A stretch of DNA of 32,000 nucleotides from Geotalea uraniireducens Rf4 (GTDB lineage Bacteria; Desulfobacterota; Desulfuromonadia; Geobacterales; Geobacteraceae). The notes beneath the pieces are model-generated. The model was not told the origin of the DNA. It saw only the letters and a program-made list of their open reading frames with translations, and made no database searches. The stretch is taken from positions 3,270,001-3,302,000 of the forward strand of contig NC_009483.1 of NCBI RefSeq assembly GCF_000016745.1, read 5' to 3'. Of this stretch, positions 9,063-32,000 are shown in pieces. The position numbers and the translations under genes are program-made. Each line of letters starts with the position of its first letter. The stretch's first letter is position 1.

Positions 9063-9136
9063 GATGCCCCCCTTGATTGGAAGTAGGTAAAAGTAACGCA
9101 AACGGCTCTTCTTCTTTACCGTTACCCTACCTGCCG

Positions 9137-9907
9137 TTAAGTTTCCCGGTTTCTCTGATACAGTATCCGCAACCCTTCCAAGGTCAGATACTCATCCACC
9201 TCCTCGATGGTAGCCGATTCCGGCGCAATCAGGCCGGCAAGCCCTCCCGTGGCGATAACCCTCGGGTTGTCCTTTCCCTCCCCTTTCATTCTTGTAACTA
9301 TCCCGTCAACGAGCCCCACGTAGCCATAATAAATCCCGGCCTGCATGGAGTTGACGGTGTTTTTCGCTATGATTGCCGGCGGCTTGGCTATCTCGACCCG
9401 CGGCAGCTTGCTCGCCTTCTGGAACAGGGCCTCCATGGAAATCATCAGACCGGGAGCAATGGCGCCGCCGCAGTATTCACCCCTCTTGTTCACATAGTCA
9501 AAGGTGGTGGCAGTGCCGAAATCGACGATTATCAGGGCACAGTGGTGTTTTTCGAATCCGGCGACCGCATTGACGATGCGGTCTGCCCCGACTTCCTTGG
9601 GGTTATCGTACTGTATCGGCATGCCGGTCTTGATACCGGGACCTACCACATACGGTTTGAACCCGAAGTATTGGCGTGAAAGCTTCTCCAGAGCCCCGGT
9701 AAGTGTGGGAACCACTGAAGAAATGATGATATCCTTGATGTCGGAAAAACCGATACCCGCAAGCCGGAACAGATCATGGACCAGGATGCCGTATTCGTCG
9801 GGCGTCTTCGACTTGTCGGTGGAGACGCGCCAGTCTCTCACCAGGCGCTCGTTGTCATAAATACCGAGAACAATGTTGCTGTTCCCCACATCAATTACCA
9901 GAAGCAA
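9137..9907 (-). CDS. coaX: Type III pantothenate kinase
   Basis: [32 protein letters not shown] and VIATGGLA are ASKHA-fold CoaX motifs. The TTG start is preceded by GGAGG. Confidence 0.9.
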
Positions 9908-9963
9908 ATCAAACCTCCAAAATCGGGGATCAGGAATCAGGGATCGGTAAAACTCTAATCAGC

Positions 9964-10047
9964 CAGTTCCCAGTTCCCAGTTCCCAGTTCCCAGTTCCCA
10001 GTTCCCAGTTCCCAGTTCCCAGTTCCCAGTTCCCAAATCACAAATCA
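9964..10047. repeat. Heptanucleotide tandem array: 10 x CAGTTCC followed by 2 x CAAATCA
   Basis: Ten perfect contiguous copies were counted directly (9964-10033), then two CAAATCA copies (10034-10047). The last copy contains the birA stop codon. The array lies in the birA-coaX spacer. Confidence 0.95.
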
Positions 10048-11055
10048 CAATATAGTCACATCCCCGGACAGCACCCGCTCTTCCCTGCCGTCGAGATCGA
10101 GCAGCAGCGCGCCTATGTCGTCAATTCCCTTGACCACGCCGGTCATTACCCGATCCTGACAGGACACCCTGACCTGTCGCCCGTACATTTGCGAACGGGC
10201 CAGCCATTCTTCCCTGATCGCCCCGTATCCATCAACCAAATAACTATCGTAGAGCGCATCAAGCTCATGGAGGAGGGTACGGACGAAATCGTTGCGGTTT
10301 ACCGGAACCCCACCCTCGATAAACAGGGAACTGGCCGGATGACGAAGGTCAGCTGGAAACTGCTCGGAACGCATATTCACATTAACGCCGATGCCCAGCA
10401 CCACGAAGTTCACCTTCTCGGTCTCGGCACTCATTTCGTTTAAAAGGCCGGCAATTTTTTTACCGTTGATCAGTATGTCATTGGGCCATTTTATCCATGG
10501 TTGCAACGGGGTAGACTGCTCCACGGACCTTGCCACGGCTACCACCGAAAGGAACGTCAACTGGGAAGCGGCAACAGGTGTTATTGAAGGGCGGAGAATT
10601 ATGGAGCAATAAAGATTGACGCCGTCCGGAGACGCCCATTCCCTTCCGAGCCGTCCCTTGCCGCGAGACTGGGTATCGGCAATCACCACCGTCCCCTCGG
10701 CGGCGCCATCCTCTGCAAGCTTGAAGGCAACGTTATTGGTGGAATCCGTCTCGTTGAAGCAGATAATCTTCGTGCCGATCCGTTTGTTCGCCAGCCCCGC
10801 TGCAATCTCGGCCGGAACAAGTAAATCGGGTGAGGCAAGCAACCGATACCCTCGCGCAGGAACCGCAACAATGCTGTAACCTAAATCCTTGAGGGATTTG
10901 ATATGCTTCCAGACGGCAGTTCGGGAGATACGGAGCGAGCTGCTCAGCTCCTCGCCGGAGACGACCTCCCCATTCCTGGCGCGGAATATTTCCAGTATCT
11001 GCTGGTTCAGCGTTTTTATGGTGCAATCAACGGTCTGCGTTGAAGTCTCTTTCAA
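10045..11055 (-). CDS. birA: Bifunctional biotin-[acetyl-CoA-carboxylase] ligase / biotin operon repressor
   Basis: It has an N-terminal winged HTH ([28 protein letters not shown]), the [12 protein letters not shown] biotin-binding motif and a C-terminal SH3-like domain. The TTG start overlaps the nadC stop. Confidence 0.9.
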
Positions 11056-14576: not shown

Positions 14577-14600
14577 GACTGAAAACTCAGTGTGTATATT
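14572..14600 (+). promoter_or_regulatory. Candidate sigma70 promoter TTGACG-17-TATATT for the multiheme cytochrome gene
   Basis: -35 TTGACG (14572-14577), a 17-nt spacer, and -10 TATATT (14595-14600), about 50 nt upstream of the ATG at 14652. Confidence 0.5.
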
Positions 14601-14651
14601 ACAGCGCTTGAAATGCAAATTCAGTTATTATTCCATGACAAGGAGTGCGCC

Positions 14652-15674
14652 ATGCAGCTTCGTCTCACCATCCTTACATTTCTTTTTGTTTTATCGGCAC
14701 CGCTCGTCCTCTTCGCCAAGGAGACCAAGGATGTCCAGTTTCGGCTTGAAAACGCCGAACCGGTTGTGTTCAGCCATGATATCCATTTAAAGAAATATAA
14801 CAACAATTGCAGAATTTGCCACAACGCAATTTTCAACCTTAAAAAACGCCAGCATTACACCATGGCCGAGATGGAGAAGACCAAATCATGCGGCGCCTGC
14901 CACTCCGGCGTCAAGGCTTTCAGCGTTGCCGACGAAAAGGACTGCGTCCGTTGCCATAAAGGCAAGCCGCGCAACATTACCTACAAGGTTAAAGGTGCAA
15001 CCGAGGCCATGTTCAGCCATGCGGTGCATATTGCCAAAACCGGCGGCAAATGTAAAAGCTGCCACAACGGCAAAATCATCACCGGCAAGGATGGCCGCGT
15101 AACAATGGCGCAGATGGAAAAAGGAAAGACCTGCGGCGCCTGCCATAACGGCGCGAAGGCCTTCACGGTAGCAGGTAACTGCGGCAAGTGTCACAAGGGA
15201 ATGACACCAAAGGATATCGCCTTCAAAACCAAGGGAATCAGCGGCGCAACCTTCAGCCACACTTTCCACACCGGCGTTTACAGCTGTAAAGACTGCCACA
15301 CCAAGATCTTCCCATTCAAAGCCGGAGCAAAGCATTTCACCATGGGTGATATGGACAAAGGCAAATCGTGCGGCGCTTGCCACAACGGCAAAGATGCATT
15401 TGCCTCCAGTGGCGACTGCGAAAAATGCCATACCGGTTTCAAACCAGGTAACATTACTTTCAAGACCGAATCCGGAGATGCCAAATTCAGCCATGAATTC
15501 CACCTCGGCATGTATAAATGCACCGACTGCCACACCAAACTGTTCCCCTTCAAGGCGGGAGCAAAACACTTCACCATGACGCAGATGGAAGAGGGAAAAT
15601 CGTGCGGTACCTGCCACAATTCGAAGGATGCTTTTAGCGTAAAGGGTGACTGTGAAAAATGCCACAAAATGTAA
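14652..15674 (+). CDS. Periplasmic dodecaheme cytochrome c built from four c7-type triheme domains
   Basis: Twelve CxxCH motifs were counted, arranged as 4 x (F.H..H...CxxCH...T/HxTM..M..GK(S/T)CGxCH...AF...CxxCH). The signal peptide is MQLRLTILTFLFVLSAPLVLFA. The start is set at the ATG at 14652, with AAGGAG 6 nt upstream, rather than the ORF-track 14592. Confidence 0.9.
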   Translation: MQLRLTILTFLFVLSAPLVLFAKETKDVQFRLENAEPVVFSHDIHLKKYNNNCRICHNAIFNLKKRQHYTMAEMEKTKSCGACHSGVKAFSVADEKDCVRCHKGKPRNITYKVKGATEAMFSHAVHIAKTGGKCKSCHNGKIITGKDGRVTMAQMEKGKTCGACHNGAKAFTVAGNCGKCHKGMTPKDIAFKTKGISGATFSHTFHTGVYSCKDCHTKIFPFKAGAKHFTMGDMDKGKSCGACHNGKDAFASSGDCEKCHTGFKPGNITFKTESGDAKFSHEFHLGMYKCTDCHTKLFPFKAGAKHFTMTQMEEGKSCGTCHNSKDAFSVKGDCEKCHKM

Positions 15675-15740: not shown

Positions 15741-15827
15741 TGTACCATACATCCGATTAACGTTTTGGGAAACACATGCAATGATCTAGCTGCAAAGTCT
15801 TTAATCCTTGTTCCGGGAGGGTCCGCT

Positions 15828-16910
15828 ATGCAAAAATTGAAAATTTTGACTGTCATACTGACGATGTTTCTCACAGTTCCCGGTTTTAGTATTGTCGCAT
15901 CAGCAGAACCGGTGCAGCCTGTCCTCCAAAAAATACAGGTAACCGGGACGGGCAAAGATACCCGGATTGATATCGTTGCCGACAAACCGCTCACCTACAC
16001 CTATTACAAAATGCCCGACCTGCTCAAGGTGGTAATCGATCTGGCGCTCGTTGATCCCGGATCGGTTGCCCCTGTTACAGTCAATTCAGGGTTGATTTCG
16101 AAAATAACAGTGGAAAAGAAAGCCATCTCGAATTTCTCCCTCACCCGGGTGGTAATCAATCTGAAAAATGACGCCGAGTTTGCGGTGCTGACGGATCAGG
16201 CAGACAAAGGTAAAATACAGGTTTCTTTCGGCAAGACATCCCCTTCCACTAACAGGGAAATATCCAAAAAGACCGGGGTAGATAAAGCCAAGACGGAAGG
16301 GGATGCGGCAACCATTGATAAAACGCCGCTATCCTCAGTTGCAATCACAACCCAACCGGCAGCCATCATCGCAACCGCTCCTGCCGCAGAAGCGGTTCTG
16401 CATCAACCGGTAGCGGCAGTACCAGCGTTGACTGGCAAAGAGCAGCAATCCGACGGGGAAAATGCAACAACTGACAAATCCGCTGTAGTGATTGCGGAGA
16501 CAAAGACTGGGCAAGCTGCGTCACTGCAACGGACAGAGTCAGCGACTTTCAGATCCAAGGCGGTTTTGCTGCCTGTCGTACCGCAGAAAATTCCGTCAGG
16601 ACCGATCAGCGCAGTCAAGGTAAACAAGGACAACCTTGTGATTGTCACCGGCTCCGGAGTTGCTGACTACAACGCCTTCACCCTGACTAATCCCGGACGG
16701 CTCGTCATCGATCTGCCGCTGGCAAAGTGCTCCATCCTTGCCAAGGATATGCCGGTGAAACGTTTCGGCATAGCAAAAGCCCGTGTCGGCACCTACCCCG
16801 ACAAAGTCCGGCTGGTTTTCGATGCTGCAGGAAAAACATTTCCTGCATACAAGATCGAGAAGACCGGCAAAGGCTTGAAAGTCACATTTCCTGCTCTCAA
16901 AAAAGGATAG
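15828..16910 (+). CDS. Secreted protein with two AMIN domains separated by a low-complexity linker
   Basis: Signal peptide MQKLKILTVILTMFLTVPGFSIVASA. AMIN-like modules are present at both ends (TRIDIVADKPLTYTYYKMPDLLKVVIDL; FTLTNPGRLVIDLPLA...RVGTYPDKVRLVFD). The ATG at 15828 has a GGGAGGG RBS. Confidence 0.72.
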   Translation: MQKLKILTVILTMFLTVPGFSIVASAEPVQPVLQKIQVTGTGKDTRIDIVADKPLTYTYYKMPDLLKVVIDLALVDPGSVAPVTVNSGLISKITVEKKAISNFSLTRVVINLKNDAEFAVLTDQADKGKIQVSFGKTSPSTNREISKKTGVDKAKTEGDAATIDKTPLSSVAITTQPAAIIATAPAAEAVLHQPVAAVPALTGKEQQSDGENATTDKSAVVIAETKTGQAASLQRTESATFRSKAVLLPVVPQKIPSGPISAVKVNKDNLVIVTGSGVADYNAFTLTNPGRLVIDLPLAKCSILAKDMPVKRFGIAKARVGTYPDKVRLVFDAAGKTFPAYKIEKTGKGLKVTFPALKKG

Positions 16911-16966: not shown

Positions 16967-18424
16967 TTATTCAAATGGGAAGCTGGAAATAGCGGTTATT
17001 TCTATTCTTTGCTCATTCCCGGTGCGAAGGTCGGCAGCAGAAACCTGGAGAATGCCGTCGACGTTAATAGTGAATGTCACCTCTATCTTCGGATCCCCCT
17101 TCGGTTCAGGAGGGATGTCCGCAAGCTCAAAAATGCCGAGACTCATATTATCACCGGCAGTCTCTTTCTCTCCCTGAAGGACGTGGATACTGACCGACGT
17201 CTGGTTATCGGCAGCGGTTGTAAATATCCTGTTTCTTGAGACGGGAACTGTGGTATTTCTGTCGACGATCCTGGTAAATGTCCCTCCTTGGGTCTCAATC
17301 CCCAGGGAGAGCGGCGTGACGTCCAGCAAAACGACGTCGCTGAACTCACCGGCAATGATCCCTCCCTGTATCGCAGCGCCAATGGCTACCACCTCGTCAG
17401 GGTTAATGCCGTCATGGCAAATCTTCGAATCGCCGAACAAATTCTTTGCAAGTTCCAGCACCGCGGGCATCCGGGTCGAACCACCAACGAGAATAACCCT
17501 GTCGATATCCTCGAACCTGAGCCTGGCATCGGAAAGCGCCTGCAGGGTGGGCCCTACCAGCTTTCGGAGGAGAGAGTCGGTTAATTCCTCGAAATCTTCC
17601 CGCGAAAGGCGTATAGGCAATATACTCCCATCCCTGGCATCTCCCCCCGTCAGGGCGTTAAGGGGAATGGTTATCTCAGCAACCATTTCACGAGACAGCT
17701 TTTTCTTAGCGAGTTCCGCCGTCTCTCTCAGGAACGATAAGGCCGCTTTATCTCTCAAAGGATCGATTCCGGTCTCCAGATGTATGATTCCGGCCAGATG
17801 CTTGACGATCCTTTGATCCCAGTCATCCCCGCCCAGATGGGTATCACCGTTGACCGCCATGACCTCGAATATCCCTTGGCCAAGTTCCAGGACGGAAACA
17901 TCGAATGTACCGCCACCCAAATCCCAGACGAGTACCGTATGGATCTCCTCCTTGTCCAGCCCATAGGCTAAAGCTGCGGCGGTCGGCTCGTTGATTATCC
18001 TTACCACATCCAGGCCGGCCACGATCCCGGCTTCCTTTGTGGCTTCGCGCTGTTCGTTGTTGAAATAGGCGGGGACCGTGATCACAACCTTCTCTATCCT
18101 TTCCCCCAGATACGCTTCCACATCTCCGACAACTTTGCGAAGGATCATCCCCGATATCCCTGCCGGTGTGTAAACATTTCCCCCCGCATGAAACCTTTGC
18201 AATGAGCCCATATACCTCTTGACCGAGACGATGGTCCCCTCGGGATTGCCGATCGCCTGGTGCAAAGCACCCTTTCCCGCCAGCATCCCGTCATCCGTGA
18301 AGGCCACCACCGAAGGGGTCAGATTTTCACCGTCCCCATTGGGAATAACCACAGGGCGTCCATTATCGAGAATGGCAACAACCGTATTGGTGGTCCCCAG
18401 ATCGATACCGATTATCCTGGACAT
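16967..18424 (-). CDS. Hsp70/DnaK-family chaperone lacking the C-terminal helical lid (485 aa); last gene of the gvp operon
   Basis: [35 protein letters not shown] and the interdomain linker [16 protein letters not shown] are present. The SBD-beta region runs to [29 protein letters not shown], and the protein ends ~12 aa later. The ATG at 18424 has GGAGG 4 nt upstream and overlaps the upstream gvpJ/M gene by 13 nt. Confidence 0.9.
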
Positions 18425-18651
18425 GGTTCCTCCGTAGCCCGAATTTCCTTGTCCCACTCCTCCATGACGCCATATTTGGTCATCGTTTCCATTCCGGCCA
18501 CGGCTGCCCTCAGGTTGACGCCGACCAAGGGGATGCCCGCAATGGAGATAACCAGGTCCGCATCCACTACGACCCCCTTGTCGAGGACCCTCTCCAGCAC
18601 ATCAACCAGCGTAATATTTCCTTTGCTTGCATGTTCCATATTCACCGTCAC
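18412..18651 (-). CDS. gvpJ/M: GvpA/J/M-family gas vesicle protein (minor structural paralog)
   Basis: The core TLVDVLERVLDKGVVVDADLVISIAGIPLVGVNLRAAVAGMETMTKYG matches the GvpA-family fold signature. The GTG start overlaps the upstream stop (GTGA). Confidence 0.85.
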   Translation of the reverse strand: MTVNMEHASKGNITLVDVLERVLDKGVVVDADLVISIAGIPLVGVNLRAAVAGMETMTKYGVMEEWDKEIRATEEPCPG

Positions 18652-19397
18652 ATGTCGACAAAGCTGTACGGCGGCCAGGGGCCGGTAGGGCGTACTGCGA
18701 TACCTTCCCTGAGGTTGATGATCTCCAGTTCCGCTGTCATCTCATCACGCCTTTCCCCGGGGACCAGGACCGACAGGTTCATGATCATCCGTACGCCGTT
18801 ATCTGCCGCCTTCACCTCTTCAATGATTATCCGTTCCGCCAGCTCCTCGATCCTCTGGTAGATATTCTCGAAATACCTTTCCTTCTCCCTTGCCATCTCG
18901 CGCTTTAACGCCTTTTCCAGGAGCTGGCCATGCATGTAAGCCGCTCCTGTCCCACCCTCCGTCTTCGCCTTGAGTTCCCTGAGGGCCGGCACACTATCCA
19001 CAAGCCTTCCTGCAACAAGATCCTCGTCCCAGAATACCTGGACACCGTATTCTTCCCTGCCCCTCAACCGGCCGATACTTTTTCGCAGTTCCCCGTGGTT
19101 TCCCCCCAGCCATCCATTGAGATCATCCGCCCCCCCCTTGATGACGGTATGGAATCTTACCGGGAGGATTGTTCCGAACCGCCTCCATGCCGTTTCAACC
19201 ACCTTCTGGTGGGAGACGACCCAGCCGATCATACTTTCTCTCTCCCAACAATCGGGCGGGTCTCCCTGGTAATTATGGACAATCGCAGACAGGCCTTCAA
19301 AATGAACAGTATAGACCTCGCTCCCATCTATCCCGATCCTTCCGAGCGAAATTTCCTCGTCCCCCTCCGCCACGCAATAGATATATCTACCTTCCAT
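18648..19397 (-). CDS. gvpF/L: GvpF/GvpL-family gas vesicle assembly protein
   Basis: The N-terminus is YIYCVAEGD...VYTVHFEGLSAIV, and the C-terminus is ...NLSVLVPGERRDEMTAEL...VRPTGPWPPYSFV, typical of GvpL/F. The start is set at the ATG at 19397 (GGAG 7 nt upstream), overlapping the end of gvpK. Confidence 0.85.
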   Translation of the reverse strand: MEGRYIYCVAEGDEEISLGRIGIDGSEVYTVHFEGLSAIVHNYQGDPPDCWERESMIGWVVSHQKVVETAWRRFGTILPVRFHTVIKGGADDLNGWLGGNHGELRKSIGRLRGREEYGVQVFWDEDLVAGRLVDSVPALRELKAKTEGGTGAAYMHGQLLEKALKREMAREKERYFENIYQRIEELAERIIIEEVKAADNGVRMIMNLSVLVPGERRDEMTAELEIINLREGIAVRPTGPWPPYSFVDM

Positions 19398-19677
19398 GCA
19401 AGTCTCCGCCAAGCACCCCTTCCACCAGGTTGTCCAGACTATCCCTCACAGACCTGACCGCCTCGGTAACACCGTTATCCTCTTTTATCTGTTCCACGAC
19501 CCTGTCAAACTCCATGAGGGACTTTCCCAGCCTTTCCACCTCCTCCGCGTTCAGGCTTCCGTTTTCCATCCGCCTTACGGCCTGGGTCTTGAGAAGATCC
19601 CTGATTATCTCCACCAGGGCAAGGACGAGCCCCAGAACCCCCTGCTTGAGATTGTCCTGCTCGATGTCGATATTCAT
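19387..19677 (-). CDS. gvpK: Gas vesicle protein GvpK
   Basis: GVLGLVLALVEIIRDLLKTQAVRRMENGSLNAEEVERLGKSLMEF is the characteristic GvpK core. Confidence 0.85.
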   Translation of the reverse strand: MNIDIEQDNLKQGVLGLVLALVEIIRDLLKTQAVRRMENGSLNAEEVERLGKSLMEFDRVVEQIKEDNGVTEAVRSVRDSLDNLVEGVLGGDLHGR

Positions 19678-19692
19678 GGGGATATTTTACTC

Positions 19693-20058
19693 CTAGAGAC
19701 TATAGTCGGTTGTATGGGCTGCAATCTTCGCCCTGGCGCTCTCCCAACCGCACCAGGGACAACCTGCGGCGATCAGTTCATCCACAGAAACCCTCTTTCC
19801 GCATTCGGGGCAGGTTTCCTTGGTCGTGATCCCCTCTTTCCAGGCAGGAGCCTCAAGATTGATCCCTGAAGGAAACGCCAGACCATACCTGGCCGCTACC
19901 TCAAAAGAGGCAATGCTCGCCCTGATCTTGATGCTGAGGAGTTCAGTCCCGACAATGGATATGGCAATGTCCGCATTGATGACTATTCCCTTGTCCAGGA
20001 TCCTGTCGAGCACATCCAGCAAGGAAGCGCTGTTGTTTATTGTCCCTTCTATGGCCAT
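19693..20058 (-). CDS. gvpJ: GvpA/J-family gas vesicle protein with a C-terminal CxxC-x13-CxxC zinc-ribbon extension
   Basis: The GvpA-family core is SLLDVLDRILDKGIVINADIAISIVGTELLSIKIRASIASFEVAARYG. A ~50-aa tail follows, containing CPECGKRVSVDELIAAGCPWC. The AAGGAG RBS lies 6 nt upstream. Confidence 0.85.
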   Translation of the reverse strand: MAIEGTINNSASLLDVLDRILDKGIVINADIAISIVGTELLSIKIRASIASFEVAARYGLAFPSGINLEAPAWKEGITTKETCPECGKRVSVDELIAAGCPWCGWESARAKIAAHTTDYSL

Positions 20059-20068
20059 CCGTTTCTCC

Positions 20069-20374
20069 TTAGTCCCTTAGAAAAATTATTTGCATGTTTT
20101 TTGCCAGCGTTGTCCGGTTTGGTTTGTGCATCAAGGTTGTTAAGCCCCATTAGGGGCGTTCGAATGTAGCCGGGGGATTCATCCCCCGGATGAGATGCTA
20201 TATTTCCCCACGTCACGTACGTGACGTGATGATATTTCGCCTGGATGACCGGGGAATGAATTCCCCGGCTACCAGTATTCTGTCCCTACGGGACGTAAGC
20301 AAAAACCAAACCGGACAACGCTGGTTTTTTGCGAAGAATTTTTCGTGAAGGGACTTATCCCGTTCATCGGGGTT
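20069..20374. repeat. Copy A of a 78-bp intergenic module, split into 35-bp and 43-bp halves by a MITE insertion
   Basis: 20069-20103 plus 20332-20374 are 100% identical to 25247-25324, by direct base-by-base comparison. Confidence 0.9.
20104..20324. mobile_element. MITE-like non-autonomous element (221 bp) with 22-bp perfect terminal inverted repeats and a 7-bp target-site duplication
   Basis: The TIR is CCAGCGTTGTCCGGTTTGGTTT at 20104-20125, with its reverse complement at 20303-20324. The flanking TTTTTTG is duplicated (20097-20103 and 20325-20331). An empty-site paralog at 25270-25285 carries a single TTTTTTG. The element has no ORF. Its interior is a chain of hairpins, including the perfect 20-bp palindrome CACGTCACGTACGTGACGTG. 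Confidence 0.8.
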
Positions 20375-20403: not shown

Positions 20404-22362
20404 TTACGCACCCGTCAGTTGACCAAGGGCTTCCACCCCCTTGACCGGACTCAGAAACAGCGGCACAACAGCAACGTCGTAGTCATTCCCCCACTTTGCC
20501 GTCACCTGCCGCAGATACTTTTCCTGCTCTCCCTTGCAGCAGCGGCATCCGGCAGGAGGGGTCACCATGTTGACGATTATATGCCTTGACGGGATACCCA
20601 ATCTCCTGATGCCGGAAAGGAGGCGTTCCGTTTCAAGGATGGCAAGGGATTCCGGAATGGTAACGGCAACAAATTCAGTTTGCAGGGAGTCGGTAAGGGC
20701 CTTTTTCACATTCTTTACATCCCTGAGCAGATTCATGATCCCTTCGGCGGCACAACCAAGCCGGACGATCTCCTTGTATTTAAGCAGCAGCCTGAGGATC
20801 GCCTTCAACCATTCAAGGACGATCTCTGGGGTTTCGAGGAAACGGAGCGCATGACCGGTGGGCGCAGTATCGATAACGAACAGGTCGTACGCCCCTCTCA
20901 GTTCGAGCATCTTCTTCAGGCCCATGATCTCGTCCAGTCCCGGGGGGGAAAGCTCGATAAGCCCCAGCATCACCTCTTTGTCAAAGGCGATATCTCCCCC
21001 TCCGGCGACGAAGGGGGAGAAAACCGCCTCGATGTCCGCGCAGTATTCTTTCTGGAATACGTTAAGCATGCGGGAGGCGTCCATCTCCAGTGCGAAGAGA
21101 TGTCCCCCCGCCGATGAGTCGATGATCGGCGTGACGGCATTTCCTATCGTGCGGTCGAAACAGTCCGACAACGAATGTGCGGGATCCGTGGAAAGTATCA
21201 GGATCTTCCTCTCCGGATTTTCCCTTGCCATATAAAGCGCTGTCGATGCGGCCATAGTGGTCTTGCCGACTCCTCCCTTGCCGCCGAAGAGAAGAAACTC
21301 CAGACCGGGTTTGCGCGCAAGCTCCGCTATGGCATTGCGAAAAGCCGCAAGGGTATAGTCGGGGGGAACGGGTGGTGAGGCAACATCTTTCCCGGCCGGA
21401 GCCGCGATTTTTACCGGCGCAAAGAGAAGCTCCGCAAATTTGCACAGGTTTTCAAATCCGTTGATTTCATGGTGGATAAGAGGGGCGAACACGAGATTGC
21501 AGTCGGCGAACCTCTCTCCGATTTCCGCCAGATACCCTTCGATCCCTTTCCTTCGCGAAGAACAGAACGGACAGTCCCCTCCCTCGACGACGCGATTGAC
21601 GATCAGGCTCCGCACCGCTATCCTATACTCCTTCAGGGATGCCAGCAGCCTGCCGGTTTCTTCGATCGCCGCCGGTTCGGGGATAGTCACCGGGACAAAT
21701 TCGGTCATCATGCCGTCCTTGAGAAGGGAATCCACTCGGTCCAGGTCGTCCGTCATCGTCTTCAGGAACTCATCCGTCGCGTCCCTCACGTACCGTCCCT
21801 TGAATCGTCTCAGGAGTAAACGGTGCTTCTCCTGCATCAGGTCAAAAACGGCAATCCATTTCTTCATCTGGGCCGGGAGGGCCAAAAGCCTCAGCGTGTG
21901 GCCGGTCGGCGCGGTATCGAGGACAATCAGGTCGAATTCGCCGGACTTCAAAAGCCTGACCACTTCAATGACCGCCATCACCTCGTCAAGCCCCGGCAGC
22001 GACAGGGAAAAGAACCCTTCGACGTCTTCCCGGTCAAAATAGGTCCCCCTTTCCGCCAGCTTTTTCATCACCCCTTCGTATTTTTTTCTGAAGTCCTGGA
22101 AGAGCTTGCGAGCGTCCATCTCCAGCAGCCAGAGATTATCAAGCTCATCGACCCGTGTGATATCCCCCCCGACGCTCCTCTCGAAACAGTCGCCCAGAGA
22201 ATGAGCCGGATCGAGGGAAATGAGAACCACCTTTTTCCCGGGCCTGAGCCGCGCCAGGTATATGGACGCAGCAGCTGCAGATGTGGTTTTTCCGCACCCC
22301 CCCTTTCCGCCGAACATTATCAGCCGGAGAGCCGGGTTATCAAGGAGCTTGGAGTTAGCCAC
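20404..22362 (-). CDS. Tandem-duplicated ArsA/Get3-family P-loop ATPase (pseudo-dimer) with a CxxC motif in each half
   Basis: It has two deviant Walker A loops (FGGKGGCGKTT; FGGKGGVGKTT), two DPAHSL motifs and two DTAPTGHTLR/DTAPTGHALR switch II motifs. CPFC follows IVNRV in half 1, and CRCC follows IVNMV in half 2. GTG start 6 nt after the gvpO stop. Confidence 0.9.
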   Translation of the reverse strand: MANSKLLDNPALRLIMFGGKGGCGKTTSAAAASIYLARLRPGKKVVLISLDPAHSLGDCFERSVGGDITRVDELDNLWLLEMDARKLFQDFRKKYEGVMKKLAERGTYFDREDVEGFFSLSLPGLDEVMAVIEVVRLLKSGEFDLIVLDTAPTGHTLRLLALPAQMKKWIAVFDLMQEKHRLLLRRFKGRYVRDATDEFLKTMTDDLDRVDSLLKDGMMTEFVPVTIPEPAAIEETGRLLASLKEYRIAVRSLIVNRVVEGGDCPFCSSRRKGIEGYLAEIGERFADCNLVFAPLIHHEINGFENLCKFAELLFAPVKIAAPAGKDVASPPVPPDYTLAAFRNAIAELARKPGLEFLLFGGKGGVGKTTMAASTALYMARENPERKILILSTDPAHSLSDCFDRTIGNAVTPIIDSSAGGHLFALEMDASRMLNVFQKEYCADIEAVFSPFVAGGGDIAFDKEVMLGLIELSPPGLDEIMGLKKMLELRGAYDLFVIDTAPTGHALRFLETPEIVLEWLKAILRLLLKYKEIVRLGCAAEGIMNLLRDVKNVKKALTDSLQTEFVAVTIPESLAILETERLLSGIRRLGIPSRHIIVNMVTPPAGCRCCKGEQEKYLRQVTAKWGNDYDVAVVPLFLSPVKGVEALGQLTGA

Positions 22363-22368
22363 ATGCCC

Positions 22369-22671
22369 CTACTCTTCCACTAACGTTTCGGCGCGCCTGC
22401 GCATCCCTTTGCGGCTGAATTCGAGCAGATTGCCGTGATTATCCAGTACGGCCTCATAGGTTGCAAGGATATCCATGTTATCAGGTATGACGCGCTTTTC
22501 CACCAGCTCGACCGACACTCGCCATCCCATCTCATCCTTCGCAGTCTTCAGCGTGGATGAAAGCTCCAGGCCGGTCAGAACGCTGAGCTCACTTCTTGCC
22601 TTCTGGATGATATTCCCGATAGACATCGCCATTTTTGCCGCCTCCGGCTGTTCAGACGAATCGACTTTCAT
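22369..22671 (-). CDS. gvpO: Gas vesicle protein GvpO
   Basis: The core LTGLELSSTLKTAKDEMGWRVSVELVEKRVIPDNMDILATYEAVLDNHGNLLEFSRKGMRRR matches my recollection of the GvpO family. The ATGA overlaps the gvpG stop. Confidence 0.8.
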   Translation of the reverse strand: MKVDSSEQPEAAKMAMSIGNIIQKARSELSVLTGLELSSTLKTAKDEMGWRVSVELVEKRVIPDNMDILATYEAVLDNHGNLLEFSRKGMRRRAETLVEE

Positions 22672-22907
22672 AATTCCTCTTTACGTTCCATGATCTCTTC
22701 CAGCCTGGCCATCAGTTCCGCTTCCTTGCTCAGATACTCTTCTTCGGTCATCTCATCGAGCTCAAAGCGCATCTGTAGTTCGAGAAGTTCCTCATGTATC
22801 CTGGAGTCGTCGGTCATCTCCGACTCAGCCATGTCCTTGAGTTTATCGGCTACCCAGACCAGCCCTTTTATGGGTGAAAGGAGAATGTCATCCAACAAAA
22901 AGATCAT
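22668..22907 (-). CDS. gvpG: Gas vesicle protein GvpG
   Basis: MIFLLDDILLSPIKGLVWVADKLKDMAESE...EEEYLSKEAELMARLEEI is the typical GvpG N-terminal hydrophobic helix plus acidic helix. The ATGA overlaps the upstream gene. Confidence 0.85.
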   Translation of the reverse strand: MIFLLDDILLSPIKGLVWVADKLKDMAESEMTDDSRIHEELLELQMRFELDEMTEEEYLSKEAELMARLEEIMERKEEL

Positions 22908-23881
22908 TCGACGACCCTTACCATTATGGCATCCTTCCCGAAAGCGAGGTTGCTGCAGCCCGTCAGGATTTTGTATGCCCGGCTGAACTTCTCGAAAATC
23001 ATCTGCGCATCGGGGTCGCCGGAATTATTGTCCGGGTGATACTTCCGGAGCTGCTTCCTATATGCCTTCCTGACCTCGTCCTTATCATCTCCAGGGACCA
23101 CGCCGATGATATTCATCGCTTCCTCAATCTCCCCGGCCCCTATTCTGCATATTTCCAGGGTATTGAAGCTGTGAGGAGGAAGCGGGCCTATGACCCGGAA
23201 GTTTATTCTGCCGCAATACCTCTTATCCAGCCCTTCTATCTGCTCATCCAGCGCGTTTTTCTTCTCACTCTCCACAAGAAAAGCCACGTTCAGCAGCATC
23301 CTGTCATCGAAATGCTCGCGGATCCTCTGCTCAAGGTGATGCTCCTTAAGAGCGAACAAAATTTCGTTCCCGACCCTCCCATTCTCCTCCTCCAGGGCCA
23401 CCCTGACCATTTTTCCCAGCTCTATGGCCGCCTCCCTAAGCTCTTCCCGGGATGCAGTTGCAATCTCTTCCTTGAACCGTCGAATCTCGTCTCTCTCCCC
23501 CAGTTCCCTCAATGTCGAATCCAGATCATTCCACAAGGCTATCAAATCCACCTCGACCTTGCCCGCCATGCTGTCGATCGCGTTTTTGAAGCAAGGGTAT
23601 CCCGATTCCAGTATTTCGAGAAGCTCCCCGTCATCCATGGCCGATGTCCCGAATTTTATCGGGACAGCCGTACACTCCTTCATAATCCCCTCGATCAGCG
23701 ACTGGTGGTTTGCCAGGTGCCGGACAAGGATATCCTTGGGAAGGGATGCGTAGTTTATGGGTGATGATTCCTTTACCACCAGGGCGATGTCGCGGTACGG
23801 CACGAGATAGGCGCAATCCCCCGAAACCGCCGCATCCCCGCCATCACGGCTTACAACGCAATAAAGATGCTTTGCCATCAT
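22904..23881 (-). CDS. GvpF/GvpL-family protein fused to a C-terminal DnaJ (J) domain
   Basis: Residues 1-245 are GvpL/F-like (HLYCVVS..., LLNVAFLVESEKKNALDEQI..., FRVIGPLPPHSFN). Residues ~250-305 are EIEEAMNIIGVVPGDDKDEVRKAYRKQLRKYHPDNNSGDPDAQMIFEKFSRAYKIL, with the diagnostic HPD tripeptide. Confidence 0.85.
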   Translation of the reverse strand: MMAKHLYCVVSRDGGDAAVSGDCAYLVPYRDIALVVKESSPINYASLPKDILVRHLANHQSLIEGIMKECTAVPIKFGTSAMDDGELLEILESGYPCFKNAIDSMAGKVEVDLIALWNDLDSTLRELGERDEIRRFKEEIATASREELREAAIELGKMVRVALEEENGRVGNEILFALKEHHLEQRIREHFDDRMLLNVAFLVESEKKNALDEQIEGLDKRYCGRINFRVIGPLPPHSFNTLEICRIGAGEIEEAMNIIGVVPGDDKDEVRKAYRKQLRKYHPDNNSGDPDAQMIFEKFSRAYKILTGCSNLAFGKDAIMVRVVE

Positions 23882-23888
23882 TGTCCCT

Positions 23889-24440
23889 TCAGGGCTTCTT
23901 CCTGGCCTTCTTTTTTGAAACTCTGATATCGAGGATGCCGTTTTTGTAAGAGGATTTGAGTGTGGCCGGATCGACAGACGATGGCAGGGGAATCTCTTTC
24001 ATGTATTTCCTGTCCTTATTCCCGGCCTTGAGGAAAAGGGTATCGCCTTTAACATCGATGCTGATGTGCTCATTTTCCACACCGGGCATCTCCGCAACCA
24101 CCACCACGTGATCCTTCTCATCGAACACGTCTATCATCGGCTCCCTGACCTCCTCCACCACAGGCCCTTTTGCGGTGTCCCTGACGTTACCGAAGGACTC
24201 TACAACGGGCTTGCCGCCCATGGTCCGCACCGTAAAGCCGTAGACACCTTTCGCCTCCTTAGGCATTCCCCTTATCTCACCCTCCTTGCGGATCTCTTCC
24301 CCCTTTTCAGCCGCTGTGGCGGCAAGGTCAATAAGGGTTCCAAGCCCCTTGAAGAGCCCTCCAAAAGAGACTTTGCCCAGACCGAAATCGATCTCTACCC
24401 CCTCTTCCTCTTTTTCCGCTTTCTTTTTTCTCTCAGCCAT
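23889..24440 (-). CDS. Hsp20/alpha-crystallin small heat-shock protein (GvpH-like position)
   Basis: The alpha-crystallin domain is IDVFDEKDHVVVVAEMPGVENEHISIDVKGDTLFLKAG...EIPLPSSVDPATLKSSYKNGILDIRV. A Lys/Glu-rich N-terminus precedes it. Confidence 0.88.
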   Translation of the reverse strand: MAERKKKAEKEEEGVEIDFGLGKVSFGGLFKGLGTLIDLAATAAEKGEEIRKEGEIRGMPKEAKGVYGFTVRTMGGKPVVESFGNVRDTAKGPVVEEVREPMIDVFDEKDHVVVVAEMPGVENEHISIDVKGDTLFLKAGNKDRKYMKEIPLPSSVDPATLKSSYKNGILDIRVSKKKARKKP

Positions 24441-24467: not shown

Positions 24468-25217
24468 TCATTTCCATTCCACGACTAGGTTCACAAAATT
24501 GAAAGGCGGTATTGGACCGACATATTTGAATATGAGCCTATCCTTGTTTGCGGCGTCGAGTTCCGTCATTCTCTCGTCAAACTCCCTTATCCGCCCACGT
24601 TCTACAAGGAAAGCCGCATTTAAATTCATGTTGTCTCCATGGAGTTTATTTACGCTGGTTCTGCGGGATATCGGCTTCAACTTGTCGAGGATATATCCCG
24701 CTTCCCGTTCCTTTCTGGCCACAAGCGCCGCCTGGACCATCCGGCCGAGGTTGATCCTGTCAGCGTAACACTTATCCGGCGGGACCGAGGCTATTTTCCC
24801 CTTCAGTCTCTTTATTTCCGGTTCCGTTTCTCCGATTTCATGAAATACCTCGTTTAAATCCTTCCAGAGGGACTTCACCCCGAGCTCCACCATGTTGTCC
24901 ATATCCCTAAGGAGTTCCTTGAACTCCATATATCTCTTTCTCAACACCCTGCGGATATCTTCCACGCTTTCAGCGACGGTGCAGAACCTCACAGGGAGGA
25001 CCGTATGATCCTTCATGACCTCTTCGATGACCTTCTGATGGGCCAGCAGATTTTCTCTGGTAAGGGTGTATTTGATCACAGGGGTCCCGCTGATAACTGC
25101 AGCGATGTTCTCGCAATTTATGGTGGTTACCACATCTCCACGGCCACCGATCCCCATGGGACCGAAATTTCTCGCGTCATCAGTCCCTATGATGCAATAT
25201 AAATAATTGTTTTCCAC
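24468..25217 (-). CDS. gvpF/L: GvpF/GvpL-family gas vesicle assembly protein
   Basis: YLYCIIGTDD..., LLAHQKVIEEVMKDHTVLPVRF, NLNAAFLVERGRIREFDERM and FKYVGPIPPFNFV. The GTG start has GGAGA 6 nt upstream. Confidence 0.85.
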   Translation of the reverse strand: MENNYLYCIIGTDDARNFGPMGIGGRGDVVTTINCENIAAVISGTPVIKYTLTRENLLAHQKVIEEVMKDHTVLPVRFCTVAESVEDIRRVLRKRYMEFKELLRDMDNMVELGVKSLWKDLNEVFHEIGETEPEIKRLKGKIASVPPDKCYADRINLGRMVQAALVARKEREAGYILDKLKPISRRTSVNKLHGDNMNLNAAFLVERGRIREFDERMTELDAANKDRLIFKYVGPIPPFNFVNLVVEWK

Positions 25218-25686: not shown

Positions 25687-26709
25687 TTACAGCATGCTGA
25701 CTGCCTTGTCACCCACCGCTATTCTCTGGCCGACCTTAAGGGACGGTTTCGTATCCGTATTCATTTCCCCGGCTTCAGGGTTACTCCCACAGTGCCTGTC
25801 AACCAGTTCAGCTATGAACTCCTTAACCTTTTTTATATTGGCATCGCTTCCCACCCTGCTCGTTTCCGAGGCAAGTACATCAGTGCAGATACTCCTGAAT
25901 ATTTTGTTCCCCGCTTCGACCGCGGCCTTTCTTACCTTCGCAGTCTTTGCAATCATGATGCATCCCCTCACAGTGGGTGCAAACTCGTATTTCCCGGAAT
26001 CCCTGAGACTCCTGACGATATTCACAATTTTTTCCGAATCGTGCAGGGGCAATCCCGACTTTGCCGAGGTTATAGCCATTTCCGTCTCCTTGTCAGGATA
26101 GCTGATGTCTATCGTGACCATCCTGTCCCGCAGAGCGTCCTGGCTCCTGTAGACTCCCGCATACTCCTCGGGATTGCTTGTAAAGATCGCGACAAAATCC
26201 GGGTGCACCTTGAGATACCCTTCTCCCCCCCTTGCAGTGGGCATGCCCATCATCTTTTCCTGCAGGACAGACAGGAGAACGTTATTGGCTTCGGGCCTGG
26301 ACCTGGTAAATTCGTCATAGATCAGAGTGAACCCTTTTTTGCAGGCCAGCGTCAGCCGGCTGTCTATCCAGGAACTGTTCATGCTCTCTTCAGTCTTCAG
26401 GACTGAATGAATGAAGTTGTCCACGACCTTCTTTTTCCTGTAGCCATGCTGCCCCCCCACCAGGTCGGATGTGGAATGCTCCTCGTCACCATGCATGATA
26501 ACGAGCGGCCTGCCGAGCTTACTGGCAACATGCATGGCAATTGTGGTCTTGCCTGTACCTGAGGTCCCCCTGAAGTGGACGGGGAAACCAGCAGCAATAT
26601 AGGCAAGAGCCCGCTCCGTCACATCCCGGACATAGTCCGTTTCCACAAAGTTCGGCAAAGAACGGGGCTCTAAAACGGTCGCCAGTACTTCAGCATTTTC
26701 TTCCTGCAT
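25687..26709 (-). CDS. gvpN: Gas vesicle AAA+ ATPase GvpN (CbbQ/NirQ/NorQ/GvpN family)
   Basis: Walker A FRGTSGTGKTTIAMHVA, Walker B LIYDEFTRS, and an arginine-finger region. The size is ~340 aa. The AAGGAGAG RBS lies 6 nt upstream. Confidence 0.9.
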   Translation of the reverse strand: MQEENAEVLATVLEPRSLPNFVETDYVRDVTERALAYIAAGFPVHFRGTSGTGKTTIAMHVASKLGRPLVIMHGDEEHSTSDLVGGQHGYRKKKVVDNFIHSVLKTEESMNSSWIDSRLTLACKKGFTLIYDEFTRSRPEANNVLLSVLQEKMMGMPTARGGEGYLKVHPDFVAIFTSNPEEYAGVYRSQDALRDRMVTIDISYPDKETEMAITSAKSGLPLHDSEKIVNIVRSLRDSGKYEFAPTVRGCIMIAKTAKVRKAAVEAGNKIFRSICTDVLASETSRVGSDANIKKVKEFIAELVDRHCGSNPEAGEMNTDTKPSLKVGQRIAVGDKAVSML

Positions 26710-27457: not shown

Positions 27458-28105
27458 TCAACCCTGCCATGCCGTCTTGTCATAGAAACTGAACACCCCT
27501 TCCCACTGAGCGGCCACTTCCCGGCGTATCCTGTCAAACTCATCCAGTATCCGGTCTATCTCGTCACTGGATTCCCTGTCACGGTTACCGAGCGTCTTAA
27601 CCACGGATTTCAAGTCCTTTATCCTTACCTCCTCCCCTTTGGACAAAAGATTTTTCAATGCCGCTATCAACTCTTCCTGCTCCAGCTGGAACTTCATCAG
27701 TGACTTTGCCACCTCTTTCTCTCGTTCCCTGAGCCGCAAAAGGATATCCCTCTTCATTATTTCAAAATCGGCAGGGTTGCAATTCCCGGTGAGGACCTTC
27801 TTCAAGATGAGGATCATCTCCCCTTCTTCCTGCCATATAGTTTCCAGCTGCTGCCGGGTTTTTGTCTCTCTTTCTCTCCTCTTGGCCAGGACGGTTTCCA
27901 TCAGGGCATCAAAGTCCTTTTTTCTCATCCCCCCATGCCTCGAGAGATTTTCCTTCAAACGTCTGCTCATCTCATCCTGTTCCCTGCAATAGTTATTCAC
28001 ACGTTTCATTGCTTCAACAACGAGAGTATTGACAAGCTTTAACCGCTTTTCGTACGATTTTATGATCTCCAACCCTATAGTTCTCAAAGGTTCCTGAAAC
28101 TCCAT
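27458..28105 (-). CDS. Charged helical repeat protein in the gvpC position (candidate GvpC functional analogue)
   Basis: The ATG at 28105 has GGAG 6 nt upstream. There are two clear ~47-aa internal repeats: KKDFDALMETVLAKRRERETKTRQQLETIWQEEGEMILILKKVLT and PADFEIMKRDILLRLREREKEVAKSLMKFQLEQEELIAALKNLLS. It lies directly downstream of gvpA. Confidence 0.6.
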   Translation of the reverse strand: MEFQEPLRTIGLEIIKSYEKRLKLVNTLVVEAMKRVNNYCREQDEMSRRLKENLSRHGGMRKKDFDALMETVLAKRRERETKTRQQLETIWQEEGEMILILKKVLTGNCNPADFEIMKRDILLRLREREKEVAKSLMKFQLEQEELIAALKNLLSKGEEVRIKDLKSVVKTLGNRDRESSDEIDRILDEFDRIRREVAAQWEGVFSFYDKTAWQG

Positions 28106-28195
28106 TTCCAACTCCGCTCATAATCCTTGTACGGTTTCGCGTCTACTGTTTGTGTGAATGGAGATGGAGACATGCTTGAGTAACTTGTTTATAAT

Positions 28196-28253: not shown

Positions 28254-28472
28254 TTACGCATGCATTGCCGTCGCAGTGGTTGTAAGGCCTACTGCCTCGG
28301 CATACTTAAGGAAAGTATCCACAGAGGCAACAACGACCCTCGCTTCGATAGCGAGAAGCTCGATCCCCACTAAGGAAACCCTTGCCCAAGCATCGATACA
28401 TACGCCCTTGTCCAGGATCCTGTCGATTACCTCGACGAGACTGGAAGATGCATTTGTTTTCTCAACTGCCAT
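28254..28472 (-). CDS. gvpA: Major gas vesicle structural protein GvpA
   Basis: [63 protein letters not shown] is nearly identical in pattern to canonical GvpA. The start is set at the ATG at 28472, with an AGGGGG RBS, not the GTG at 28481. Confidence 0.95.
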
Positions 28473-28617
28473 GATATTCACCCCCTTTCTTTGAACTGGC
28501 GTGACACTCTAAACCCTTTATTCCATCGATCGATACGGAGCGATCCGTCTCACGCAAATCTTTTCCGCATGCGTCGTCGGTTACTTCAAAGTTTAGAGAT
28601 ATCTAATAAGAGACTAT

Positions 28618-31515: not shown

Positions 31516-32000
31516 TTATCTGCGCCCTTCCATGAAGACTTTCATCGCCTCCTGGAAATGAGCTGCGGATATTTTCAACGTCTTGGGATCGTCTGCGCCT
31601 TTCTCGACGAACTCGCAGATTGCAATAATGGTAGCTTTTCTGCACAGGAACTCTATATCGGCGCCGACCAGTCCTTCCGTTTCAGCGGCAATGGACTTCA
31701 GATCAACGTCCTTGAGAAGCGGTTTGCCTCTCGTATGAACCTTGAATATCTCCAGGCGGGCATCTTCGCCGGGAGGCGGGATCTCGACGAGGATATCGAT
31801 GCGCCCCGGCCTCAGGAGAGCCGGGTCTATGATATCCTTTCTGTTGGTGGCGCCGAGGATGAAGACCCCCTTCAGCTCTTCGGTCCCGTCTATCTCGGTC
31901 AGGAGCTGGCTTATGACCCGCTCCGACACATGGGAATCTCCGCCCCCTCCCCTTGCAGGAGCAATTGCGTCCATCTCGTCGAAAAAGAGTATGCAGGGGG
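31516..32000 (-). CDS. AAA+ ATPase, CDC48/VCP-like subfamily (C-terminal part; gene continues beyond the window end)
   Basis: The Walker B region ILFFDEMDAIAP runs to the window edge. Sensor-1 is GATNR, the second region of homology/arginine finger is DPALLRPGRID, and a helical lid follows (GADIEFLCRKA). Confidence 0.85.
   Translation of the reverse strand, partial: PCILFFDEMDAIAPARGGGGDSHVSERVISQLLTEIDGTEELKGVFILGATNRKDIIDPALLRPGRIDILVEIPPPGEDARLEIFKVHTRGKPLLKDVDLKSIAAETEGLVGADIEFLCRKATIIAICEFVEKGADDPKTLKISAAHFQEAMKVFMEGRR

Follow-up and report, generated by a model that had tools for sequence, protein, structure and literature searches.

The 32,000-nucleotide stretch of the Geotalea uraniireducens Rf4 genome analysed here (NC_009483.1, positions 3,270,001-3,302,000; hereafter the window, in whose positions all coordinates are given) carries a gas-vesicle (gvp) operon that ends in a gene for a member of the Hsp70 superfamily. 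This open reading frame (ORF) lies on the minus strand at 16967-18424; it starts with an ATG at 18424, stops with a TAA at 16969-16967, and codes for 485 amino acids (aa). A GGAGGA motif is located 5 nt upstream of the ATG. The ORF can be extended to a GTG at 18457, but this start is unlikely, and 18424 is the likely one because the N-terminal 13 residues read from the ATG align with residue 1 of DnaK proteins. As an earlier note on this DNA, which gave no strand, had claimed, the Hsp70 start overlaps the preceding gene, a GvpM-like member of the GvpA family (18412-18651), and the junction sequence confirms that the overlap comprises the last 13 nt of that gene. A convergent gene encoding an AMIN-domain protein ends 56 nt past the Hsp70 stop, and the Hsp70 gene is therefore the last cistron of the operon, in agreement with the same note. 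A terminator scan 3' of the stop found no convincing site adjoining it.

The protein is made up of a nucleotide-binding domain (NBD, approximately residues 1-360; 17345-18424), the interdomain linker DVVLLD (residues 363-368; 17321-17338), the beta-sandwich of the substrate-binding domain (SBD-beta, approximately residues 369-478; 16991-17320), and a disordered 7-residue tail, ISSFPFE, which together with the TAA stop occupies 16967-16990 and contains no helix A. These boundaries were drawn from alignments and coordinate mapping, for the sandwich and the tail also from an AlphaFold2 (AF2) model, and for the tail from the lid search described below; residue roles in the NBD follow PMC8215388. 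The Pfam HSP70 family (PF00012) matches with E=6.5e-179 and is covered over approximately profile positions 1-499 of 599, while the NCBIfam DnaK models are matched over positions 1-498 of 625. The closest solved structure is Geobacillus DnaK residues 1-474, and the match ends at position 505 in E. coli DnaK numbering. The AF2 model (mean predicted local distance difference test score, pLDDT, 84.7; predicted template modelling score 0.81) consists of the NBD and a beta-sandwich at residues 373-475, with no helix after residue 357 and a disordered segment at 476-485, and superposes best on domain-docked, ATP-type DnaK structures (template modelling scores 0.87-0.90). The catalytic residues D8, K70, E171, D194, T199, and D201 (DnaK numbering) are all identical, and the alignment shows the J-binding residues R167, N170, T173, and D326 and the linker to be conserved. 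In total, all catalytic, J-binding, linker, and interdomain residues examined are kept, and the NBD motifs, hydrophobic linker, and beta-sandwich SBD that the earlier note had listed are all present. The NBD insert of approximately 24 aa found in proteobacterial DnaK is absent. A Pfam MreB_Mbl match was also obtained, which reflects only the shared actin fold; the intact linker and SBD argue against an MreB-like cytoskeletal role.

The earlier note had further described a protein that stops shortly after its last SBD-beta strand and lacks a helical lid of ~100-130 aa. Alignment with E. coli DnaK, HscA, and HscC (sequences from the MG1655 record) confirmed that the protein ends at approximately DnaK N508, right before lid helix A, and in the AF2 model the last beta strand of the 485-aa chain spans residues 471-475. 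The alpha-helical subdomain (SBD-alpha, ~100 aa) that forms the lid in the Hsp70 superfamily is thus missing. The absence of the lid held, and the size given for it corresponds to the full DnaK lid plus tail; compared with gvp-linked relatives that carry a lid, the deficit is ~90-110 aa. Seven lid queries (E. coli DnaK and HscC, Alicyclobacillus DnaK, and four gvp-linked lid-bearing Hsp70s) were run against the whole window by tblastn and gave only noise (best E 0.16), whereas an SBD-beta query, used as a positive control, matched at 17302-16985 with E 2e-37. In seven related lidless loci, no lid was found at E<=0.05, while the lids of lid-bearing loci, again a positive control, were recovered with E 1e-4 to 1e-24. 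Neither the window nor the seven loci therefore contain a frameshifted or split lid, the finding that the note had said would overturn its claim. A 157-aa ORF that follows the Hsp70 gene at locus L004 was considered as a separate lid and is not lid-like. The Hsp70 encoded by the last gvp cistron has shed its alpha-helical lid in the course of evolution.

Among 5.8 billion proteins searched, the thirteen closest relatives, with 66-93% identity, all have 480-510 aa. Behind them, additional short proteins were interspersed with many of 565-590 aa and with ordinary DnaKs of 600-650 aa. Distance-based neighbour-joining (NJ) trees were computed from sequences among the best 120 matches, using the 480 columns shared by all sequences (NBD and SBD-beta); as only these shared columns were used, the grouping cannot be a product of the missing lid. 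All 24 short Hsp70s (480-512 aa) formed one clade in 200/200 NJ bootstraps, with 92-100% under three distance corrections, and the same truncation point is common to these 24 independent clusters. We examined gvp linkage for 12 Hsp70 loci, six lidless and six lid-bearing, and found it in 12/12. The six lidless members that were located on contigs represent both subclades, are relatives at 60-72% identity, and include one Geobacter sp. metagenome-assembled genome (MAG) and one 'Deltaproteobacteria' MAG. In each of them (6/6), the Hsp70 gene is the last gene of the gvp operon and directly follows a GvpM-like gene, and in four (L001, L006, L007, L008) the two genes share an identical 13-nt overlap. 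Taken as a whole, the window operon has its closest named relative in a Geobacteraceae MAG, a taxon that also suits the multihaem cytochrome c7 gene of the window. Accordingly, the lidless Hsp70s are a monophyletic clade that is gvp-linked in every case examined. This is the clade that the earlier note had asked phylogeny to look for, and it contradicts the placement among housekeeping paralogues without gvp linkage that would have spoken against it. The proposed features of the clade are a length of 480-512 aa, monophyly, a position as last cistron after gvpM, Q or E at position 404, and loss of the latch arginines, and the window Hsp70 shows all of them. Members of lidless subclade 2 (P0015, P0024, P0035, P0048, P0049, P0088, P0091) carry a conserved C-terminal motif, ...GQADNxIEEIPAEMI, after SBD-beta, which may be a docking peptide; the window Hsp70 ends in ISSFPFE in its place.

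Loss of the lid is accompanied by changes at the latch and at the nucleotide cleft. In DnaK, the R467-D540 latch joins lid and SBD-beta, the nucleotide cleft is closed by the K55-E267 and R56-E264 bridges, and the lid limits both association and dissociation of substrates (PMC8215388). We compared these positions between the lidless clade (n=24), the 565-590-aa group (n=41), and DnaKs of at least 600 aa (n=58). The latch arginine R467 is kept in 0/24, 37/41, and 58/58 sequences, respectively, and R445, likewise a latch residue, in 2/24, 41/41, and 58/58. At the cleft salt bridges, K55 is retained as K or R in 9/24, 41/41, and 57/58, and R56 in 7/24, 37/41, and 57/58. The decay of latch arginines and cleft salt-bridge residues is therefore confined to the lidless clade. 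A different distribution was found for the arch position 404, where Met or Leu is the general rule for DnaKs (PMC8215388): it is Met or Leu in 56/58 ordinary DnaKs and polar (Q/E) in 24/24 lidless proteins and in 39/41 of the 565-590-aa group. The window Hsp70 itself has L55, H56, A257, Q404, K445, and K467 in DnaK numbering; in its own numbering, Q379 stands at M404, and K420 and K442 stand at the latch residues R445 and R467.

The GrpE signature ATGPKH (residues 290-295) is absent from the window Hsp70. No GrpE domain was found among the 30 window ORFs scanned with Pfam, as the earlier note had stated for the window, nor in the gene lists of related loci, and the window contains no full-length DnaJ. 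The absence of the cleft bridges accounts for the 700-fold faster ADP release and the GrpE independence of HscA (PMC8215388). From the loss of the latch, the cleft bridges, and the GrpE signature, fast cycling without GrpE is therefore predicted. Removal of the lid raises substrate on and off rates in work cited in PMC8215388 (Mayer 2000, Moro 2004), and these cited experiments, combined with the sequence changes, lead us to predict, as the earlier note did, fast client on/off kinetics. Taken together, the residue patterns argue that the Hsp70 has long been evolving without a lid as a fast-cycling chaperone that needs a J-protein but no GrpE.

A candidate partner for such a J-dependent Hsp70, which the earlier note had overlooked, is encoded in the same operon. 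One of its three GvpF/L paralogues (22904-23881, minus strand) carries a C-terminal J-domain, with Pfam matches to GvpL_GvpF (1.2e-51) and DnaJ (1.4e-13), and is the presumed dedicated co-chaperone. In the AF2 model (pLDDT 89.8), helices I-III of the J-domain (residues 249-308; 22958-23137) are formed by residues 249-259, 267-281, and 292-308, and the HPD motif (23030-23038 by coordinate mapping) lies between helices II and III of a J-domain fold. Both Pfam domains were detected in 48/54 of the homologue clusters found, and HPD is invariant in 6/6 syntenic fusions and kept in 38/41 homologues. A scan of genome contigs returned only 8 loci. An Hsp70 gene is present in the same cluster at 10/10 HPD-bearing fusion loci with enough flanking sequence, which comprise the window, L001, L002, L004, L006, L007, L015, L021, L022, and L024. 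Locus L020, which ends at the GvpM-like gene, was left unscored for Hsp70, and L016 (Alphaproteobacteria) was excluded as an orphan GvpF-like gene (9806-10942) with a degenerate J-like tail without HPD and no gvp cluster nearby. The model of the fusion contains no J-domain helix beyond I-III, and a conserved last strand, AIMVRVV (318-324), packs onto the GvpF beta-sheet; according to this model, the J-domain would be inserted close to the C-terminus instead of forming a free tail. Small stand-alone proteins with a DnaJ-type CXXCXGXG zinc finger also occur in gvp clusters with GvpF-J (L020 at 9088-9519 and 18641-19033; L021 at 19900-20325), and these clusters seem to divide the modules of a class-A DnaJ among several of their genes.

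The association of Hsp70 with gvp genes extends beyond the lidless clade, a second point that the earlier note had overlooked. Lid-bearing Hsp70s of 570-586 aa were gvp-linked in 6/6 loci, namely L015 (a Desulfatiglandales MAG), L021, L022, L023, L024 (a Coprothermobacterota MAG), and L025 ('DnaK' of Candidatus Hakubella thermalkaliphila). Like the window Hsp70, they are placed after a GvpM-like gene, have GvpF/L-J, Hsp20, ArsA, and CDC48 genes nearby in several loci, and have a polar residue at the arch. Unlike it, they keep helices A-E, the latch arginines, and K55/R56, and only the disordered C-terminal tail is missing. As these lid-bearing proteins are also gvp-linked and share Q/E404, lid loss is taken to be derived, against the background of a broader link between Hsp70 and gvp genes. 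The shared polar residue at 404 alone hints at a common ancestry of the two groups. Used to ask whether the lidless clade is nested in the lid-bearing group, NJ trees with Kimura and gamma distances never recovered a joint grouping of the lidless and mid-length proteins and gave a mixed sister group. The GvpM-like gene near the lid-bearing Hsp70s (L014, L015, L021, L023, L024, L025) usually encodes a fusion of 237-371 aa, consisting of a GvpA-family domain, one or two GRAM/PH-like modules, and a zinc ribbon, whereas GvpM in the lidless clusters has 70-85 aa; an exception among the lid-bearing loci is L022, with a 90-aa GvpM and a 584-aa Hsp70. At L015, a kinase and a response regulator lie between gvpM and the Hsp70 gene. 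The published analysis of the Hakubella gvp genes covers the gvp cluster and hsp20 and leaves the adjacent 'DnaK' unmentioned.

To place the window Hsp70 among known systems, we compared it with the three prokaryotic types that a review of the superfamily recognises, DnaK, HscA, and HscC (PMC8215388). With 485 aa against ~640 and no lid or charged, disordered tail, it falls short of DnaK; it scores 637 against a cut-off of 822.55 with TIGR02350 and passes NF001413 only marginally (649.9 against 648). It also lacks the K55/R56 bridges, the GrpE signature, and Met/Leu404, and its context is gvp and not dnaK-dnaJ-grpE/heat-shock (length, salt-bridge, signature, and 404 criteria from PMC8215388). 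HscA does not fit either, with a TIGR01991 score of 498 against a cut-off of 708.55, no N-terminal extension, and a gvp context in place of isc/HscB. As for HscC, its SBD-beta insertion ('NRQGVSG' in the E. coli protein) has no counterpart here, the lid is missing altogether where HscC has a shortened one, and identity is 37%. The window protein is therefore a member of the Hsp70 superfamily that fails defining features of all three recognised prokaryotic types.

The closest functional analogue, by comparison of arrangement and sequence, is the HscA-HscB-IscU system. There, too, a specialised Hsp70 has its gene in the operon of the pathway that it assists, a dedicated J-protein brings one client, and HscA has lost the DnaK cleft bridges and has no GrpE dependence (PMC8215388), a property that for the window Hsp70 is a prediction from sequence. 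HscA differs in its full lid, its length of 600-620 aa, and its N-terminal extension, while the window system has its J-domain on a GvpF/L fold, Q/E rather than M at the arch, and no lid. E. coli HscC is likewise a shortened Hsp70 (556 aa) without the NBD insert and GrpE features and adjoins its own J-proteins, DjlB and DjlC (PMC8215388), but the HscC type (550-580 aa) keeps a shortened lid, has the SBD-beta insertion, and is not part of an organelle operon. Engineered lid-deleted Hsp70s (DnaK truncations, Mycoplasma DnaK delta-SBD-alpha 5obu/5obv, and BiP 7a4u) have the same NBD-linker-SBD-beta organisation, and the AF2 model superposes on them; they are laboratory constructs, whereas the lineage of the window Hsp70 arose naturally, is conserved, and shows compensating changes at the latch, at the arch, and in the cleft salt bridges. 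Finally, EutJ and TopJ, which gave weak NCBIfam matches and are compared by family description, resemble the window system as Hsp70 or J-protein family members dedicated to building a prokaryotic organelle. EutJ, from the ethanolamine microcompartment operon, consists of an actin-fold ATPase domain only and has no SBD, and TopJ, from Mycoplasma terminal-organelle assembly, is a large J-protein that uses housekeeping DnaK. We know of no relation of either to gvp genes.

Based on the sequence evidence, we consider it fairly likely that the gvp operon encodes an Hsp70 machine dedicated to gas vesicles, probably an organelle-specific system that handles sticky gas-vesicle shell proteins. Interaction studies have singled out GvpF as the main protein that binds the hydrophobic part of GvpA and as its putative chaperone (PMC11445434), and GvpL binds GvpJ and GvpM, with proteins of the A/J/M family aggregating in the absence of chaperones (PMC9501494). 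Since GvpF/L proteins are reported as direct binders of GvpA/J/M, we infer that GvpF/L-J is a client-specific J-protein. In the proposed cycle, the fusion would hold a GvpA/J/M-type protein, and its J-domain would dock on the ATP form of the Hsp70 and set off hydrolysis, upon which SBD-beta would clamp an exposed hydrophobic segment of the client. With the lid, the latch, and both cleft bridges gone (L55, H56), client and ADP would leave quickly without GrpE, resulting in rapid cycles of holding and release rather than long trapping. Aggregation-prone shell proteins could in this way be kept soluble and be passed to the growing vesicle or freed from GvpF/L, and the absence of the lid may open the SBD to segments on oligomeric or partly assembled clients. 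The constant adjacency of gvpM and hsp70 and their 13-nt overlap suggest GvpM as a prime candidate client. The earlier note had proposed a specialised role for one client class, for which the J-domain fused to GvpF/L in the same operon provides support; with lid-bearing Hsp70s gvp-linked as well, lid loss is not the basis of gvp specificity.

Several observations weigh against such a dedicated machine, or against parts of it. Lid-bearing Hsp70s hold the same operon position in other lineages, so that the gvp role does not need lid loss, and the reason for that loss is speculative. The mixed sister group in the NJ trees gives no support for a single origin of all gvp-linked Hsp70s, and salt-bridge loss is incomplete within the lidless clade, where 9/24 keep K/R55. 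All relatives come from uncultured MAGs or metagenomes, so that gas-vesicle production by these organisms is itself presumed. In principle, the J-domain could recruit the housekeeping DnaK of the host instead. If the J-domain of GvpF/L did work with host DnaK and GrpE, the lidless Hsp70 would have a separate, J-independent job, for example as a passive holdase. Housekeeping DnaK is, to our knowledge, near-universal in bacteria. J-domains are promiscuous towards DnaK-type Hsp70s (PMC8215388), which would allow such a pairing; however, the presence of an Hsp70 gene in the cluster at all ten adequately covered HPD-bearing fusion loci and the retention of R167, N170, T173, D326, and the linker for J-signalling in the lidless Hsp70 make this division of labour quite unlikely. 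A role in remodelling or quality control also comes into consideration, in which the Hsp70, together with Hsp20, ArsA/Get3, and (in relatives) CDC48-type AAA+ ATPases, clears mis-assembled GvpA-family aggregates or dismantles vesicles. Hsp20, ArsA, and CDC48-like ATPases do co-occur in these clusters, and a small Hsp, an Hsp70, and an AAA+ ATPase form the canonical disaggregation triad. We nevertheless regard this role as unlikely, since the fusion partner of the J-domain is GvpF/L, an assembly factor, rather than a module that binds aggregates, the close coupling of gvpM and hsp70 suggests synthesis alongside a client, and a lidless, fast-releasing Hsp70 would be ill-suited to force-generating disaggregation (judging from PMC8215388).

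The Hsp70 might also regulate gvp expression, for example by titrating the sigma-54 activator or another factor, in the way DnaK acts on sigma-32. Genes for a sigma-54 activator and a histidine kinase do lie upstream, and at L015 a kinase and a response regulator stand between gvpM and the Hsp70 gene. Yet the fusion partner of the co-chaperone is a structural assembly protein, and the regulators vary by lineage (NtrC-type versus GerE/LuxR-type) while the pair of Hsp70 and GvpF-J is constant, so we give regulation very little credence. Practically no weight attaches to a reading of the gene as an ordinary dnaK that was truncated to a pseudogene or altered by a frameshift or assembly error, or as a housekeeping paralogue next to the gvp genes by chance. 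The marginal NF001413 pass is what such a reading can draw on. Against it stand the truncation point common to the 24 independent clusters, the conservation of all functional residues, the clade-specific decay of the latch and salt bridges without a lid remnant, and the gvp linkage of 6/6 lidless loci and of 12/12 when the lid-bearing ones are included. Furthermore, the missing NBD insert of E. coli DnaK, which is deleted in many DnaKs outside the proteobacterial clade (PMC8215388), shows that the gene is not a recent copy of a proteobacterial-type dnaK. Artefact and chance neighbourhood are thus rejected on clade, linkage, residue conservation, and the lack of a lid remnant.

A dedicated gas-vesicle Hsp70 machine would combine a known machine, Hsp70 plus J-protein, with an architecture and a role that have not been described before. 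The full texts searched, a coverage that leaves out many subscription papers, gave unrelated mentions only and none that described an Hsp70 or a J-domain for gvp clusters; a Desulfotignum genome paper lists an 'Hsp70 protein' with no gvp link. GvpF and GvpG have only been hypothesised to be chaperones (PMC11445434), and how hydrophobic GvpA-family proteins are kept soluble and delivered to the growing wall is an open question. A J-domain fused to GvpF/L together with an operon Hsp70 would offer a concrete, ATP-driven mechanism and would tie GvpF/L to a known chaperone cycle. More tentatively, and as a possibility that we hold to be less than probable, these proteins could constitute a fourth, organelle-dedicated class of prokaryotic Hsp70 beside DnaK, HscA, and HscC, present in gvp clusters of many uncultured anaerobes and with the GvpF/L fusion as its obligate J-protein. 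Its Geobacteraceae/'Deltaproteobacteria' branch would have shed the lid, the latch, the cleft bridges, and GrpE dependence to become a minimal fast clamp that acts directly on GvpA/J/M subunits at the growing shell or close to it, a site that would leave no steric room for a lid. If this is true, the Hsp70 would be an essential, transferable assembly factor for these gas vesicles. A natural lidless lineage with matched decay of latch and cleft also amounts to an evolutionary experiment on the purpose of the lid and of GrpE. Heterologous expression of gas vesicles for ultrasound reporters brings proteotoxic stress (PMC12848028), and dedicated chaperone modules from operons such as this one are candidates to relieve it.

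The remaining genes of the operon are all encoded on the minus strand, and co-directional genes for GvpA, GvpN, GvpF/L, GvpG, GvpJ, GvpK, GvpM, and GvpO identify it as a gvp operon, with GvpA, GvpN, and the third F/L paralogue assigned by orthology. Upstream of the GvpM-like gene (Pfam Gas_vesicle; best NCBIfam match GvpM) lie GvpL/F (18648-19412; Pfam, NCBIfam), GvpK (19387-19677; Pfam), and a GvpJ with a C-terminal zinc ribbon (19693-20058; Pfam, NCBIfam), the latter being a CPxCG...CPWCG extension with a weak DUF7560 match. These are followed by a tandem ArsA/Get3-type ATPase (20404-22362; Pfam, NCBIfam), GvpO (22369-22671; Pfam), and GvpG (22668-22907; Pfam, NCBIfam). Beyond the GvpF/L-J fusion, the operon encodes a small heat-shock protein of the Hsp20/alpha-crystallin family (23889-24440; Pfam, NCBIfam), which also matches the ArsA_HSP20 domain, a GvpF/L without J-domain (24468-25217; orthologous to GvpL_GvpF proteins of L009/L010), a GvpN-type AAA+ ATPase (25687-26709; its orthologues carry AAA_5), and, as the first operon gene, GvpA (28254-28481; its orthologues carry Pfam Gas_vesicle). 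ArsA and Hsp20 have already been reported in gvp operons (PMC2963123, Castillo & Saier 2010), and their role in gas-vesicle biogenesis is still unexplained.

Directly after gvpA, a gene at 27458-28111 (minus strand) encodes a 217-aa protein that is predicted to be all-helical, shows by eye approximately three repeats of ~45 aa, matches no Pfam family above cut-off, and is conserved in L009, L010, and L015; it may be a GvpC-like, shell-reinforcing protein. Directly upstream of gvpA are a sigma-54-dependent response regulator (28727-30199, minus strand) and a histidine kinase (30174-31229, minus strand), an arrangement that is kept in L001 and L002, while more distant clusters have GerE/LuxR-type regulators. 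Of a CDC48-like AAA+ ATPase at the edge of the window, the C-terminal part is included (31516-31974, minus strand). A CDC48_N double-AAA+ ATPase lies in or adjoins the gvp cluster in L006, L007, L022, L023, and L024; in L006 and L007, whose operons have no ArsA, it is encoded between Hsp20 and GvpF-J. On the other side, two genes on the plus strand converge on the gvp operon, one for a multihaem protein with four cytochrome c7 repeats (14592-15674) and the other for the AMIN-domain protein (15765-16910).

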